Positions 4,357-10,175 of a stretch of 24,000 nucleotides of DNA are shown here, piece after piece. This DNA is from Collinsella aerofaciens (GTDB taxonomy: Bacteria > Actinomycetota > Coriobacteriia > Coriobacteriales > Coriobacteriaceae), in assembly GCF_041537385.1 (NCBI RefSeq), contig NZ_JBGORS010000001.1, positions 289,835-313,834 on the forward strand, read 5' to 3'. How positions within the stretch are numbered: position 1 is the first letter of the stretch; every line of letters begins with the position of its first letter. Under the pieces are notes generated by a model. The model saw only the letters and a program-made list of their open reading frames with translations, did no database searches and was not told where the DNA came from. The position numbers and the translations under genes were made by a program.

Positions 4357-7300
4357 CTAGTCTCCTCTGGCGGTTTGCCAGTTGGGTGTTCGCGGAACGG
4401 GAATACTCTTATATGCGTACACGTCCTTTGCCATGTCGATTAGGTCCTCTTCAAGACCGCCAGCCTCTACTTTTGAATTAATATAAACAACGCATGATTG
4501 CTGAACTTTTTGAAGCAGCCTACTCCATTTTAGATGCATTAGAATGACTTTAACAATATCGACTTTACTCGCATTACAGCAGGTGATCACCGCATCGAGC
4601 TGCTTGTCGGTCAGGATGGTGCGATCCAGCTTCCATTCACATCTTTGTGCCATGAACGCAATGCAATTCGAGGCGATATCCTCATTTAGAGTCACCATTC
4701 TTTTAAGTAGAGGCGCTCCTTGCTCAAAGTTTGCCTCGGTATCAATCAAGTTGAATAGATCATCTTTTGCCCATTCATTCCAGGCTTTTACGATATCTGT
4801 TGGGTCGAGACTATTTAAGTAATGAATAATTGCGGAAACAGCCTCTGAGACTAGGGCTGGAGTGCGTCCAAAATGGGAAAGCAGTTTAGAGCGGCTTTCC
4901 TTCTCGTCAAAACGAATTGATGAGAATAGGCAGTACTTCCTAATGCGTTCATAAGGTTTGCTGAGCTCCTCACAAGGCGCTACTGCAAACTTAAGCCACA
5001 CTTCGCTAAGGGAGCGCCATGTTTGGCGATTCGCAATATTCAAATTGCTGAGTCCCCAAACACTTCCGATGTGCCCGGGAACATCGTTGTTTACCAACGC
5101 CGACTCCATATGCGACTTATAGAAGGGCATGTGATTCGTTGCCCAAAAATTTAGCTGCGAGAATAGCGCTGCAAATATAATGTTTGACGAGACTTCGTCG
5201 TTGCATGACGCCTCAATGAGCTGCTCAATTGAGGCGAGCAGCGAGGTGCTTTCGTCATTGAGTTCCAATTCATCGCATCTGGCCAGCAAGTAAATTTGAG
5301 CGTTGACGGCTTGCCCCAACGTACTATTGAGCGCCCTGGAAAACCAATCCACCTTTACGCTATTTGAAATTCCTTCGTGTGAGACGCATGTCAGTATTCT
5401 TTCGGGTGCGACCGAGCTGAGAGTAAGCTGGACGCATTCCGCGACATGAGCATTGTCAATTTTTCTGACTAAGTACTCAAGGGCGTGAATCGTTGCCGCG
5501 TAGGACTCATGATATGTTGCTGTTATGTTGAAAACAGGAAGTAGCTGTGCAAGTTCATCGGAATCTAATGATTCCCATGGAATGCTAAGCAGCATGAATT
5601 TAGCTGCGAGCATTTCAGGCTTGGATTCAATTCTGTTGGCTATGTCTGAAATGACTTTAATCACTGAGTCAGGGTGGGCGTTACAGCTGGCCCTAACTAT
5701 CTCGTCCGCTTCAAAGTCATCATGACCAACATCGCCTGCCCTTTCAAACAGCTGGATTACTTTTTCTGCCGTAAATTCCGATGCGGTCAATGGGATAATT
5801 TGCGGAAACCCGCAGGTAGTAAAGGACGATAAGTCCGGAAATTCGGTTAGCTTAAAGTTGGGATGGTCGACTGCGATCTGTTCAAGTTGTTGCTGCAATA
5901 GATCGTCCATTACATTGTTGTCCACAAGCCACTGATATAAGTTGAAACGCGCATACGAACAGTGGTGATCGTCCGCATATTTGGCGAATGTTAAATTAAC
6001 CCCCTCGATAAACTCTTTCTTAGCCAACTTGCTTGCTTTGGGGTACACCGTGAGGACAAGATGGTATATCTCAAATTTGGCGGCTGGATCTTTAAGAGCC
6101 CCGCACTTAACTGCGAGAGCTAAAGCCTGGTTAGCGTCTGATGGGCTCAGGCAATATAAATAGAGGCCCAAGCGTTTTATGAGACTGCACTTTGAATCTA
6201 TTAAAGCAAGCACCTTATTTGCCTCAAGTATATTTGTCAAGAAGAGTTTGCGACCAACCTCCCTTGCGCAATCGATCATTACGCAAAAAGTGCCCTCCTT
6301 AGGCATATCTTGCTCATGATCTTCAATTGCATGGCGAATAAAACTTGATGAGTCTATCCATTCACATAGATCGGTATAGCCAGCTTCAAGATTAGCAATG
6401 TCACTCAAACGATTACAGAGCAATGAAAGCAGCCGCACGCCAAGACGATCCGCCCAGGCAACGATTGCTTTGGTGACGGTTTCGACGTTATCGGAAAAAT
6501 TAAATCTAAAACGAGGGCAAAAACTGCCTTTGGTGCCGGCGAATCCTTTAACCCACTCCGCTTTGTAAGAGAGCATGATTTCAATTAATCTTAGCGCCAG
6601 ATCTGGACTTGCAATTTTGGACAATAGCTTTGGGAACGTGAACTCCATCCATATATCGTCTGTCTTATCGAGATTTAAAAATGAGAGCCAGAAGGAAATG
6701 CTGGCATCCGAAAAATCATGGGAATCGGCAATGTGCTCAAGCGACTGACAGACATATGTCGATGACAACATTCGACCTTTTCCCGAGACAATCTGATAGA
6801 CATCTACGTATTGATCGACTGAAAAAGATTCAACTGACCAATGGAGAAAGGTCCATTCCCAACCATCCAGTTTGTCTTTTGTTAAGAATGAATCGATCCC
6901 GCAATCAACGAGGCTCTTCAATGACTCAATACTATTGGCATTTGTACAAAAAGCGGTAGCAAGAGCATTTCTTTCTTCATCACCGTCTTCGGGATTGGTA
7001 AAGAAAGAGGCAAGGTTCTCGTATTCCATATAAGACAGCTGGGATGTTAATTCTGCATACGATGCAACAGCAGAGCGGCGTACGCTCAACGACTCATTAC
7101 TTAATTTTTCCCACCCCATAAATAGAGGTGCCAACTCGTTATAGTCATTAAAATGGACTGGGATGACACCAAGTGAACTCCACTCACTATCTCTACTTTC
7201 ACCTCGCTCAAGTGCGAAAATGCGCCCATTCATATCTGCCGAAATGGATCGAGTTAGATATTTGACCATCATATCGCTGCAGCTATAGCCAACAAATAGC

Positions 7301-7928: not shown

Positions 7929-10175
7929 CTATTCTTCGTTATTAATGTCAGCGTTAATAACGAAACGGTCCCACTCCTGCACTAGAGTAGCAACGCGGTG
8001 ATCCGTAACATCGTCTAAATCGTTTTGATTGGGATCCGTTTTGATGTAATGTGCTGCAATAAATTTCTTTGCCAAAGGTTCCAAGGATGAATACCATGGC
8101 TTCTGCCAAATTGACGAGACCATTTCATGGGTAATGCTTTCATCTCCACCATGAATAGACCCAAACATGACTTCGCCGGTATTTAATGATCTTCCTATCG
8201 ACATCTGTTGTGTTCCGAAAAGAATCTTTGCTTCGTCGTTGTCCATAAGAATATTTTCGAAATGATTCCAATTTGAGAAGTTGTTATCGGTGTCTATCGC
8301 TTGCCAGATCTTGAACTCAAAGACCGCAGCCCTTCGTAGCAGCTCCATAAAATTGCGATTCATCCAATTTGAGTATTTTTTACAAAGCTCGAGATAGAAC
8401 TCATCAATTAGAACAATCTTATCCAAGGCCGCGTTCTCACGATTTAGCCTCTCGTCTCGAATAAAATAAATTAAGCCAGCAAAATACTCCTCCTTTTCGC
8501 GTTCGATTGTATTGATCAGCCAATTGCTGAATTCAAACTTTCCAATGCGTTTTCCAAGTGCTTCGAATAGCCTCGTGTAAGATTCGATTGGGCTCAAGAA
8601 CAAGCGAGGAGCCAGAGCGTTGCCCTCTTTGCACATCAGAGTTAATACTTCTTCAGCTAGATGCAAACAGCGATTCGAATCTATTCCGGCAATGCCAATT
8701 ATTAATCTGCCTGCCAACTCGTTTTTTTCTTCATCTGAACGGAGGTTTCTGAATGCATCACTGAGTGATTTGGAATTTGAAGTGTTACAGATTAAATCGA
8801 ATTCCGTCTTAGAAGAACCGGATTCGAGTTTAGAGCAATAGAAAAGTTTGAATAAAGCGTAAGAACTAACTCGACCCTTAATCCTGGCAGTTTCTTCAAT
8901 TATCTCGTAACGACGATTGTGCTTTTCCGTCAAATCCAACCCTAAAATGTGCCTAGAAATACTACTAGGCTCCATTAAGCAATCTTTACAGGATCGACGT
9001 ACGGTGCTTTCGAAATCCTGATTAAACTGAGCAAGTTGATCACTAGTCCAGTTAACGACCTTTTCGCCAAACAAATAATCAGAGTTTTCCCAAAGCCAGA
9101 TGCTAAGGTTTGGCGCTAGGCACTGGATGGCAGACATGCCTAAGATGTCTGCTGGGCATATCTCATCATCAGTACGCATTTGACTTGTTATGGCGCTATT
9201 TTTAAGCCTACAGATGTCGCGAGGAACGCGAATTAGGGGAAGCACCACTCGAGATAGAACTGCGTGTGAATGAAGCCTGTCATCCTGATTCATCGAATCG
9301 GCAAACCGTGATTTAGCCTGCAGTTCGTGAACTATTAAATCAAGTTGAGGCGCTACGTCAACCTCGAGAAGCTTTGGCATTTCAATGGGGAGTTGAATTA
9401 TCTTCTCGAGATAACCAGCTCCATCCCCTTTTTGAATTTTATTTAGTGCGCGTTCAACAATAGAGCGATCGTAAGCAAGCAGATATACAACATGAGGAAA
9501 TGAGGCAGTTAGAGCAACTAGTTTAAATACTAGGCAAATTTCATCATCAGAAAGGCGATCGATATCATCAATGACAACAACAAGATTTGGATGGACTTTC
9601 TTCAGTTTTTTATCGATGTCATGCTTCTGGTCTTCGAGTGATTTGACATAACTCTGAAGTTGCTTGCCTAAAACCCGCGCTCCAATTTTAATAGCAAATC
9701 GACTTCCGACCGATAGGGCGACCCCTAGCGGTGGATTAGGAGACAATAGTAATGTAGAAAGAGATGCGAGGCTTGGATAGGAAATGCTTGCTGAATAAGT
9801 TGACAACGCTTCCCCGATGCTGTTGCAAGTTTCATTTTCTAGGTCAAAAGTGGTGCCCGTAAGTTTGATTTTTACAGAATTAAAAAATTCAGTAAGCAAC
9901 TGCTCTTGGGAGTTAAACCTCCAAGGGTTAAACCTAAGCACTTCGGGGGCATTCAAATTATGAGATTTTCTGTCGGATAGTTCAGATTCAACAAGATTTA
10001 TCAGAGAAGTCTTTCCGCTCCCCCACGATCCTCTAATTCCTATTGTAAAGGACGAGTCTTCGGCATTTGCGGAACAAATGCAATCTGCAATTCGTTCGGC
10101 TAACCTTGAATAGCTGTACATATCCTTATCGCGATTATTAATAGGCGTATCATTGGAAAGCCCTTTTGACTCCAT
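7929..10175 (-). CDS. KAP-family P-loop NTPase
   Basis: Walker A is in IGIRGSWGSGKTSLINL. A long insert with a hydrophobic stretch (SLASLSTLLLSPNPPLGVALSVG) follows, then Walker B VVVIDDIDRLSDDE and the typical LLAYDR segment. The protein is 748 aa. GGAGG lies 7 nt upstream of the ATG. Confidence 0.88.
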   Translation of the reverse strand: MESKGLSNDTPINNRDKDMYSYSRLAERIADCICSANAEDSSFTIGIRGSWGSGKTSLINLVESELSDRKSHNLNAPEVLRFNPWRFNSQEQLLTEFFNSVKIKLTGTTFDLENETCNSIGEALSTYSASISYPSLASLSTLLLSPNPPLGVALSVGSRFAIKIGARVLGKQLQSYVKSLEDQKHDIDKKLKKVHPNLVVVIDDIDRLSDDEICLVFKLVALTASFPHVVYLLAYDRSIVERALNKIQKGDGAGYLEKIIQLPIEMPKLLEVDVAPQLDLIVHELQAKSRFADSMNQDDRLHSHAVLSRVVLPLIRVPRDICRLKNSAITSQMRTDDEICPADILGMSAIQCLAPNLSIWLWENSDYLFGEKVVNWTSDQLAQFNQDFESTVRRSCKDCLMEPSSISRHILGLDLTEKHNRRYEIIEETARIKGRVSSYALFKLFYCSKLESGSSKTEFDLICNTSNSKSLSDAFRNLRSDEEKNELAGRLIIGIAGIDSNRCLHLAEEVLTLMCKEGNALAPRLFLSPIESYTRLFEALGKRIGKFEFSNWLINTIEREKEEYFAGLIYFIRDERLNRENAALDKIVLIDEFYLELCKKYSNWMNRNFMELLRRAAVFEFKIWQAIDTDNNFSNWNHFENILMDNDEAKILFGTQQMSIGRSLNTGEVMFGSIHGGDESITHEMVSSIWQKPWYSSLEPLAKKFIAAHYIKTDPNQNDLDDVTDHRVATLVQEWDRFVINADINNEE

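Follow-up and report, generated by a model that had tools for sequence, protein, structure and literature searches.

Neighbouring KAP NTPase and SIR2 genes in a gut Collinsella defence island are probably two autonomous single-gene systems

Results

Two adjacent minus-strand genes in a Collinsella aerofaciens defence island

The stretch of Collinsella aerofaciens DNA analysed here, referred to as the window (24,000 nucleotides of contig NZ_JBGORS010000001.1), covers a dense defence island in which two minus-strand genes are separated by a spacer of only 47 nucleotides (7882..7928). The upstream gene (7929..10175) encodes a 748-residue PifA-like P-loop nucleoside triphosphatase (NTPase) of the KAP family, hereafter KAP, and the downstream gene (4357..7881) encodes an 1174-residue divergent sirtuin with an N-terminal SIR2 domain, hereafter the SIR2 giant. 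An earlier note, made on the letters alone, had proposed that the two genes form one defence module, in which KAP would act as the sensor or switch and the SIR2 giant as the effector that depletes nicotinamide adenine dinucleotide (NAD+). Comparison with related loci leads us to another reading, namely that KAP and the SIR2 giant are very probably two adjacent, autonomous single-gene anti-phage systems of a human-gut Collinsella defence island.

The layout described in that note agrees with the open reading frames (ORFs), PADLOC and Pfam: the two genes are co-directional, GajB of a Gabija pair lies 86 nucleotides upstream of the KAP gene, and MntA of an MntA/HepT pair follows the SIR2 gene after 114 nucleotides. 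The motifs that it quoted also stand where they are expected, and its family assignments, its view of the region as a defence island and its suggestion of a SIR2 NADase are in keeping with our results. In KAP, the Walker A motif GSWGSGKTS occupies residues 49-57 (nucleotides 10005-10031, minus strand) and the Walker B motif VVVIDDIDR residues 199-207 (9555-9581, minus strand), both within the Pfam KAP_NTPase domain formed by residues 23-281 (9333..10109, minus strand). The SIR2 giant carries FAGSGVS at residues 24-30, TTNFD at 116-120, YLHGN at 153-157 and FVGYSCSD at 196-203, all in an N-terminal α/β domain of SIR2_2 type (residues 1-245; 7147..7881, minus strand). The codons of its catalytic-type residues Asn118 (7528-7530, minus strand) and His155 (7417-7419, minus strand) were checked.

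The SIR2 giant is most likely a divergent member of the DSR1 family

Pfam recognised SIR2_2 in the SIR2 giant (E 7e-19) over residues 114-233 only, and the match of the PADLOC Dsr1 model (E 2.8e-31) was restricted to model positions 6-271 of 1275. The Dsr1 models of PADLOC and NCBIfam cover just the first ~20-25% of the protein, which lies outside the DSR1 equivalog. A homologue search revealed a continuous family, composed of a Collinsella group at 77-98% identity and of full-length relatives of ~1160-1190 residues at 24-36% identity that are spread over many phyla. In some of these relatives Pfam finds DUF4020, a C-terminal domain linked to DSR1. In an alignment of 33 homologues, 53 columns are invariant and are distributed along the whole length; they include T116, T117, N118, F119, D120, H155 and G156 in the N-terminal domain, and W348, W398, R516, R540, R570, E604, P682, W769 and N852 in the C-terminal region. 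The Asn of TTNFD and the His of LHG align with the motifs TTNYD and MHG of ThsA (6LHX).

We then compared two profiles, one (A2) built from the Collinsella clade and its 30-36% relatives and the other (A3) from eight proteins that contain both SIR2_2 and DUF4020. Aligned with hhalign, they matched with a probability of 100 and an E value of 3e-119 over 1117 columns (9-1163 versus 4-1180), reaching both C-termini, and the identity of the SIR2 giant to the SIR2_2 plus DUF4020 proteins is about 22%. One A3 member, P0115, is matched by the PADLOC Dsr1 models in its N-terminal region and also at model positions 560-1217; for another, P0113, one Dsr1 model matches over 123-1011.

The AlphaFold2 model of the SIR2 giant, with a mean predicted local distance difference test score (pLDDT) of 86.7 and a predicted template modelling score (pTM) of 0.65, shows the α/β SIR2 domain over residues 1-245, followed by an all-helical solenoid of ~930 residues (4360..7146, minus strand) that contains only helices except for two short hairpins and is presumed to sense phage proteins. 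The earlier note had described ~900 residues with no recognisable motif; they are instead a confidently modelled all-α solenoid, homologous to the C-terminal region of the SIR2_2 plus DUF4020 proteins. A Foldseek search of the PDB returned DSR2 structures as the best matches (E 7e-8, template modelling (TM) score ~0.2), then ThsA, KomC and Avs5 through the SIR2 domain. Searching PDB sequences with the family profile yielded SIR2 domains only, with no DSR1 structure and no closer solved structure among them.

On the strength of the end-to-end A2/A3 alignment, the Dsr1 matches of P0115, the SIR2-plus-solenoid model and the DSR2 fold matches, the SIR2 giant is most likely a divergent member of the DSR1 family in the broad sense, that is, a SIR2_2 domain and a DUF4020-type sensor encoded by a single gene, a placement judged by profile models and SIR2_2 plus DUF4020 homologues. 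The fallback offered by the earlier note, a stand-alone DSR1-like gene, thus gains support from homology, the hhalign result and P0115; as a DSR1 classification it holds for the broad-sense family and falls below the curated Dsr1 thresholds.

Like DSR1 (Gao et al. 2020, Garb et al. 2022, EcDsr1 PMC12803255), the SIR2 giant consists of one polypeptide chain of ~1170 residues with an N-terminal SIR2_2 domain bearing the Asn and the His; it has a long helical-repeat C-terminal region aligned to SIR2_2 plus DUF4020 proteins, and no conserved partner gene. Unlike DSR1, it scores under the curated Dsr1 cut-offs, its model match being N-terminal only. With DSR2 of B. subtilis (PDB 8WY8, 8WKN and others) it shares the architecture of a SIR2 domain joined to an α-solenoid sensor, and the working model that a phage structural protein bound to the sensor activates the NADase. 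In contrast to this common architecture, the TM-score of ~0.2 and the identity of 10-12% are low, no match at the sequence level exists outside the SIR2 domain, and DSR2 is absent from the PDB profile matches. The SIR2_2-type NADase domain is also found in Thoeris ThsA, SIR2-HerA, SIR2-pAgo and Avs5, the matches to ThsA, KomC and Avs5 being weak and limited to the SIR2 domain; in contrast to these multi-component systems, neither the SIR2 giant nor a conserved neighbour has a SLOG, HerA, pAgo or STAND NTPase domain.

Assignment to Thoeris was considered and rejected, since ThsA matches only the SIR2 domain, and weakly (E 1e-6), and neither the locus nor its immediate neighbours encode a SLOG or TIR protein. 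Membership of SIR2-HerA, Avs5 or Qat was likewise rejected, since the partner domains are lacking. No named system that pairs KAP with SIR2 came to light, in line with the earlier note, whose author knew of none: no multi-gene PADLOC model matched, and a full-text literature search found only unrelated genome-annotation work.

KAP probably belongs with single-gene NTPase defences

KAP matches Pfam KAP_NTPase with an E value of 1e-43. The PADLOC PifA model matches it (E 5e-64) over model positions 3-457 of 720, leaving the C-terminal ~290 residues uncovered, and the matches to QatA and PDC-S20 are weak and limited to the P-loop (QatA, 65.9 bits against a cut-off of 600). Residues G49, W51, G52, S53, G54, K55, S57, D203, D204, D206 and R207 are invariant in 28 KAP homologues. 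A transmembrane or hydrophobic insert in the P-loop domain is a hallmark of the KAP family (Aravind et al. 2004). The hydrophobic insert reported in the earlier note is indeed present between Walker A and Walker B, at residues ~130-175, although it is only moderately hydrophobic, with a Kyte-Doolittle maximum over 19 residues of 1.19, under the value of 1.6 customary for transmembrane segments. Its AlphaFold pLDDT is below 50 and, with both values low, a membrane helix in the insert is not evident.

The AlphaFold2 model of KAP has a mean pLDDT of 80.6. The C-terminal ~465 residues (7932..9332, minus strand) are mostly helical and have no Pfam match. The best Foldseek match, which extends over NTPase plus helical domains, is RADAR RdrA (E 1e-6, TM 0.28), and ORC/Cdc6-type ATPases are also found with low TM-scores.

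Relatives of KAP occur apart from any SIR2 gene. At 69% identity, the relative lies in a rhamnose/polysaccharide locus, adjoining an opposite-strand gene for a 1004-residue glycosyltransferase; around it, and around the relatives at 40%, 33% and 27% identity, no SIR2 gene was found within 5-7 kb. Divergent or opposite-strand genes flank the relatives at 69%, 40% and 27%, and a small co-directional ORF (Bac_transf) lies 260 nucleotides upstream of the one at 33% (L122). A hidden Markov model (HMM) scan of the fetched KAP-alone loci gave no SIR2-family ORF, and the DNA homology of these loci to the window is restricted to 8021-10188. We conclude that KAP is most likely a PifA-like P-loop NTPase of the single-gene defence class, equipped with its own C-terminal region.

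KAP resembles PifA of the F plasmid, which excludes T7, in its KAP_NTPase domain, its length (748 residues versus 720 model positions) and its single-gene relatives. It differs in its actinobacterial host, in the C-terminal ~290 residues outside the model, and in that a membrane-helix insert is not evident. The architecture of the EF_KAP class (PMC13552941), a KAP NTPase domain followed by a region of several hundred residues without known domains, is also that of KAP, whereas the two transmembrane helices predicted in EF_KAP are not clearly seen here. RADAR and Qat are further points of comparison: RdrA rings are the best fold match of KAP and QatA matches it weakly over the P-loop; against this, the TM-score is 0.28 and neither RdrB nor QatBCD genes are present.

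The KAP gene is mosaic. Compared with that of L097 (6001-8247), the window gene (7929-10175) shows identities of 54-96% in 100-nucleotide windows, next to a sirtuin gene that is 96-100% identical. This mosaicism suggests intragenic recombination or diversifying selection.

The KAP-SIR2 pairing is confined to a narrow Collinsella clade

A check suggested in the earlier note was to score how often a KAP NTPase is the immediate upstream neighbour of SIR2 giant homologues. We surveyed 80 genome loci that encode relatives of the SIR2 giant. By tblastn, a KAP of the window type precedes the SIR2 gene in only two of them, L002 and L003, in which the SIR2 proteins are 98% and 83% identical to that of the window; the former, an uncultured Collinsella metagenome-assembled genome (MAG), is the closest genome match (98% amino-acid identity). 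In complete E. coli genomes, megablast found nothing that matches the region.

No partner gene is conserved among about 75 distant relatives from different phyla. The upstream neighbours sampled (about 20 tightly linked ORFs) encode type I restriction-modification S subunits, Eco57I-like, type ISP, AAA_21 and DUF499 proteins, several having no Pfam match, and in many of the loci no co-directional gene lies within 150 nucleotides upstream. In the nearest outgroups (30% and 35% identity), the upstream position is empty or taken by a RelB-like gene, and no NTPase is present there. Screening the upstream neighbours for Walker A motifs retained L002, L005 and L036 only. A KAP profile HMM, which is more sensitive than tblastn, added just L078 and L021 among the 80 loci. 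In L021, a short KAP (16538-18007) lies 5 kb downstream of a distant DSR1-like gene. The KAPs of L078 and L021, from Chloroflexota MAGs, have 488-490 residues and 39% mutual identity, and belong to an unrelated subfamily that has only the P-loop in common with the window KAP (E 2e-4); two loci of about 75 with a nearby KAP could be compatible with the general clustering of defence genes. Two upstream ORFs of 541 (L010) and 572 residues (L011) were discarded as antisense artefacts with low-complexity translations rich in Ala, Arg, Val and Gly.

KAP-SIR2 synteny is thus confined to a narrow Collinsella clade in which the SIR2 proteins are at least 83% identical, and is broken in both directions, so that the pair is not conserved; a lack of synteny was the first of the refuting outcomes listed in the earlier note.

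The slot upstream of the SIR2 giant holds either of two NTPases

Within Collinsella, the position directly upstream of the SIR2 giant is occupied by KAP in about 14 loci (the window, L002, L003, L081-L086, L097, L105, L106, L109 and L114) or by an Mrr_cat-nSTAND3 gene in about 14 others (L001, L004, L005, L098-L100, L107, L108, L110, L111 and L115-L118). The nSTAND3 protein has 757-815 residues and, along its whole length, fits PDC-S73, a single-gene candidate of PADLOC (E 5e-91); the SIR2 giants behind it are 76-85% identical to that of the window. A 71% relative of the nSTAND3 gene also occurs in this island without a SIR2 giant, the island again ending with the MntA-like and surface-protein genes.

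The type of upstream gene does not track the SIR2 phylogeny and is scattered over the SIR2 tree. Indeed, the SIR2 gene of L109, which has KAP upstream, is 98-99% identical at the DNA level to those of L107, L108, L115 and L001, which have nSTAND3 upstream. Other mixed pairs are L003 (KAP) and L110 (nSTAND3) at 94%, and L081 (KAP) and L117 (nSTAND3) at 91%. Since near-identical SIR2 genes follow either upstream gene, the cassettes appear to have been exchanged repeatedly, with the junction in the short spacer.

The outer flanks vary as well. Gabija is absent upstream of KAP in L081-L086 and L097, where SpbK/AbiTii and DUF4160 genes are found instead. Downstream of the SIR2 giant, MntA/HepT is kept in most Collinsella loci and a PDC-S19 gene takes its place in L003. 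The gene that replaces Gabija in L081 (3832-5226) encodes a fusion protein of 464 residues, matched by PADLOC SpbK in its N-terminal part (E 4e-77) and by AbiTii in its C-terminal part (E 6e-25); islands of this type have DUF4160 and small, weakly HEPN-like genes after the fusion.

Breakpoints and discordant divergence point to the spacer as a recombination junction

On either side of each gene, homology breaks off within intergenic DNA. Loci of the nSTAND3 type are homologous to the window from 2263 to 7893-7900, that is, up to a point inside the 47-nucleotide spacer. In KAP-SIR2 loci with other upstream genes, homology extends from 2262 to 10199-10217, just past the KAP start, and in L003 it is lost 14 nucleotides beyond the SIR2 stop codon, at the switch from MntA/HepT to PDC-S19. 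Between the window and L097, the KAP proteins are 74% identical and the SIR2 proteins 97.9%. The DNA identity of this pair, calculated in 100-nucleotide windows, rises from 70% (8010-7911) through 89% (7910-7811, which holds the spacer) to 99% (7810-7711), then stays at 96-100% through the rest of the SIR2 gene. These data indicate that the spacer is a recurrent recombination junction, exchange taking place in it or next to it. We found no promoter-like or terminator-like site in the spacer, the scan counts being within the shuffled expectation with a consensus not calibrated for Actinomycetota, so that this result carries little weight in either direction.

The SIR2 gene is itself affected in some assemblies. 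It is cut at about codon 1000 in L002 (11116-12372) by an IS256-family transposase (Pfam Transposase_mut, E 1e-102), and split sirtuin ORFs lie beside intact KAP or nSTAND3 genes in L082, L083, L113, L115, L116 and L118; the split ORFs could be real decay or assembly errors.

Given the family survey, the alternation in the slot, the breakpoints, the mismatch with the SIR2 tree, the discordant divergence, the nSTAND3 gene found without a SIR2 giant and the differing integrity of the genes, our comparisons indicate that KAP, nSTAND3 and the SIR2 giant are three cassettes gained, lost and exchanged independently.

Other genes of the island

The Gabija flank was confirmed by PADLOC (GajA E 9e-184, GajB E 5.5e-154). 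This pair occupies 10262..13616 on the minus strand (GajB 10262-11860, GajA 11853-13616) and is a separate system, considered here as context only. The same applies to the MntA/HepT type VII toxin-antitoxin-like pair at 3588..4242 on the minus strand (MntA 3943-4242, HepT 3588-3980), which consists of a nucleotidyltransferase (Pfam NTP_transf_2/Polbeta) and a HepT-like protein according to Pfam and NCBIfam matches. In many related islands, a second copy of the MntA-like nucleotidyltransferase, 77-81% identical to the window MntA, lies further downstream (L113 9783-10076, L115 11101-11391, L116 10332-10625, L117 9804-10094, L118 10319-10612, L123 13037-13333).

Directly upstream of GajA, an ORF of 183 residues (13621-14172, minus strand) has no match in Pfam, PADLOC or NCBIfam, and L002 has an ORF of 176 residues (1732-2262) in the equivalent position just upstream of its GajA. 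This ORF may go with Gabija as a third gene, or be a small gene unrelated to it.

At the other end of the island, an ORF of 381 residues (2263-3408, minus strand) is GC-rich (about 66%) and has no Pfam or PADLOC match. It begins with a hydrophobic signal-like segment, continues with a Gly/Ala-rich middle and a Pro/Thr-rich linker, and ends with LPKAG and a hydrophobic tail, an arrangement resembling that of a sortase-anchored surface protein. In nearly all related loci the island ends on its right-hand side with this ORF, whose identity is kept at 55-84%. Beyond it lies a retron-type reverse transcriptase fused to a trypsin-like protease (42-1754, minus strand), assigned to type XI (PADLOC RT-Protease_XI, E 5.7e-105). 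The msr/msd non-coding RNA expected of a type XI retron, for which the upstream region is 1755-2262, was not located, and Rfam at gathering thresholds gave no match in the whole window.

Discussion

The KAP-SIR2 arrangement is most likely the ordinary adjacency of two autonomous defence genes. How each of them might act can be sketched by analogy with better-characterized systems. DSR1 is a single protein that lowers NAD+ upon infection (bioRxiv 10.1101/2021.12.14.472415). The major capsid protein is the trigger of E. coli Dsr1, acting through a tetratricopeptide-repeat sensor shared with Avs7 (PMC12803255), and the phage tail tube protein is described as the activator of DSR2. By analogy with DSR1 and DSR2, the solenoid of the SIR2 giant would bind a phage structural protein during infection; this binding would switch on the SIR2 NADase, which would hydrolyse NAD+ and starve the phage. 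The NADase activity and its trigger are thus projected onto a protein whose homology, architecture, catalytic-type residues and lack of a partner are directly seen in our comparisons.

A model of the same kind can be put forward for KAP. Stand-alone KAP NTPases with C-terminal regions of unknown function were reported in 2026 to give single-gene phage protection that requires Walker B, and those tested include three from human faecal metagenomes (PMC13552941); the mechanism of PifA itself is unresolved (PMC13552941). By analogy with PifA and EF_KAP, NTP hydrolysis together with the fused C-terminal region would provide defence by a single protein. This mechanism is borrowed from these systems and would build on what KAP itself displays, namely its family membership, intact Walker motifs and stand-alone relatives.

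Several observations weigh against two autonomous genes, one of them of DSR1 type. For the SIR2 giant, the NCBIfam Dsr1 model (NF041818) reaches 138.7 bits, where the cut-off is 1400, and covers residues 7-281 alone; no Pfam DUF4020 match is found in this protein. In L078, from a Caldilineaceae genome, a short KAP (6259-7725) lies 275 nucleotides upstream of a distant DSR1-like gene. KAP-SIR2 adjacency is kept in three Collinsella flank contexts, with Gabija or SpbK/AbiTii upstream or with PDC-S19 downstream. All Collinsella loci examined have an NTPase gene, KAP or nSTAND3, 9-47 nucleotides upstream of the SIR2 giant. Lastly, the 47-nucleotide spacer has no terminator-like site, so that KAP and the SIR2 giant may be expressed from one transcript; co-transcription is plausible, and some functional interplay may be too.

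These observations can be read in several other ways. In the module of the earlier note, KAP would sense infection and switch on the SIR2 giant as the NADase effector, a wiring for which precedents exist in ATPase-plus-effector pairs such as SIR2-HerA and RADAR, the latter providing the best fold match of the KAP model; the co-directional genes, their terminator-free spacer and their adjacency in three flank contexts would also fit. Yet the KAP relatives at 69%, 40%, 33% and 27% identity have no SIR2 neighbour, about 75 distant relatives of the SIR2 giant have no KAP of the window type, SIR2 genes with 98-99% identical DNA carry nSTAND3 and not KAP, and KAP falls to 74% identity beside a SIR2 protein that is 98% identical. 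In addition, the SIR2 giant has its own DSR1-type sensor region and KAP a C-terminal region like those of single-gene KAP defences. With no synteny outside the narrow Collinsella clade, divergence that is discordant and a slot that is swapped, the module did not survive the comparison, and we regard it as very unlikely. The presence of an NTPase of either kind 9-47 nucleotides upstream in every Collinsella locus examined could alternatively mean that the DSR1-like sirtuin works as an effector or amplifier shared by interchangeable upstream sensors, KAP or Mrr-nSTAND3. The KAP gene is mosaic and diverges fast, as sensors often do, and L078 has another KAP by a distant DSR1-like gene. Against this, the nSTAND3 protein comes with an Mrr nuclease domain of its own and fits, from end to end, a PADLOC candidate for a single-gene system, its 71% relative does without a SIR2 giant in the same island, KAP too is found alone, DSR1-like genes outside the Collinsella clade have no NTPase partner, and a shared interface is improbable for KAP and nSTAND3, which are unrelated beyond the P-loop. 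Interchangeable sensors of this kind seem highly improbable to us, and there is but a slim chance that the Collinsella sirtuin is a shared NADase effector or amplifier for a recombined NTPase cassette, a modular 'plug-in sensor' of which L078 would then be a second example.

A looser relationship, in which the two systems are independent and co-transcribed and act in synergy through complementary phage ranges or as back-up, without direct coupling, is a less remote alternative that we still consider unlikely. It is in line with the short spacer, in which neither a terminator-like nor a promoter-like site is seen, with the adjacency that persists within the clade, and with the description of co-occurring defence systems as able to synergise (bioRxiv 10.1101/2022.08.21.504612). 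However, the promoter scan used a consensus that is not calibrated for Actinomycetota, and the free exchange of the upstream cassette speaks against selection for this particular combination. Finally, the SIR2 giant might serve no defence at all and be a housekeeping deacylase or a decaying gene, as its interruption or frameshift in some assemblies might suggest (the IS256-family insertion in L002; split ORFs in L082, L083 and L113-L118). The ORF is nevertheless intact in most loci, the invariant columns of the 33 sequences extend over its whole length, the SIR2_2 subfamily is common to the ThsA, DSR and KomC NADases, and the SIR2 giant is always found in defence islands; this possibility is therefore extremely small.

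Two autonomous genes side by side thus remain our preferred reading, and the case illustrates how neighbouring genes of a defence island can be mistaken for a system encoded by an operon, with a risk of over-calling. Close-range population comparison, in which the same SIR2 gene is seen with different upstream genes, cleanly separates adjacency from a true module. If KAP and the SIR2 giant did cooperate, this would be a new sensor-effector wiring; the evidence makes such cooperation unlikely. The recombining slot of Collinsella, which holds a PifA-like KAP in some loci and an Mrr-nSTAND3 gene of PDC-S73 type in others, offers a natural experiment on cassette turnover and possibly on synergy. 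The SIR2 giant, for its part, belongs to a large, phylum-spanning clade of DSR1-like proteins of ~1170 residues, which Dsr1 models match in the N-terminal SIR2 domain only or far below cut-off. Given this limited reach of the current NCBIfam, PADLOC and Pfam DUF4020 models, annotation may overlook part of DSR1-type immunity, notably that of gut Actinomycetota.

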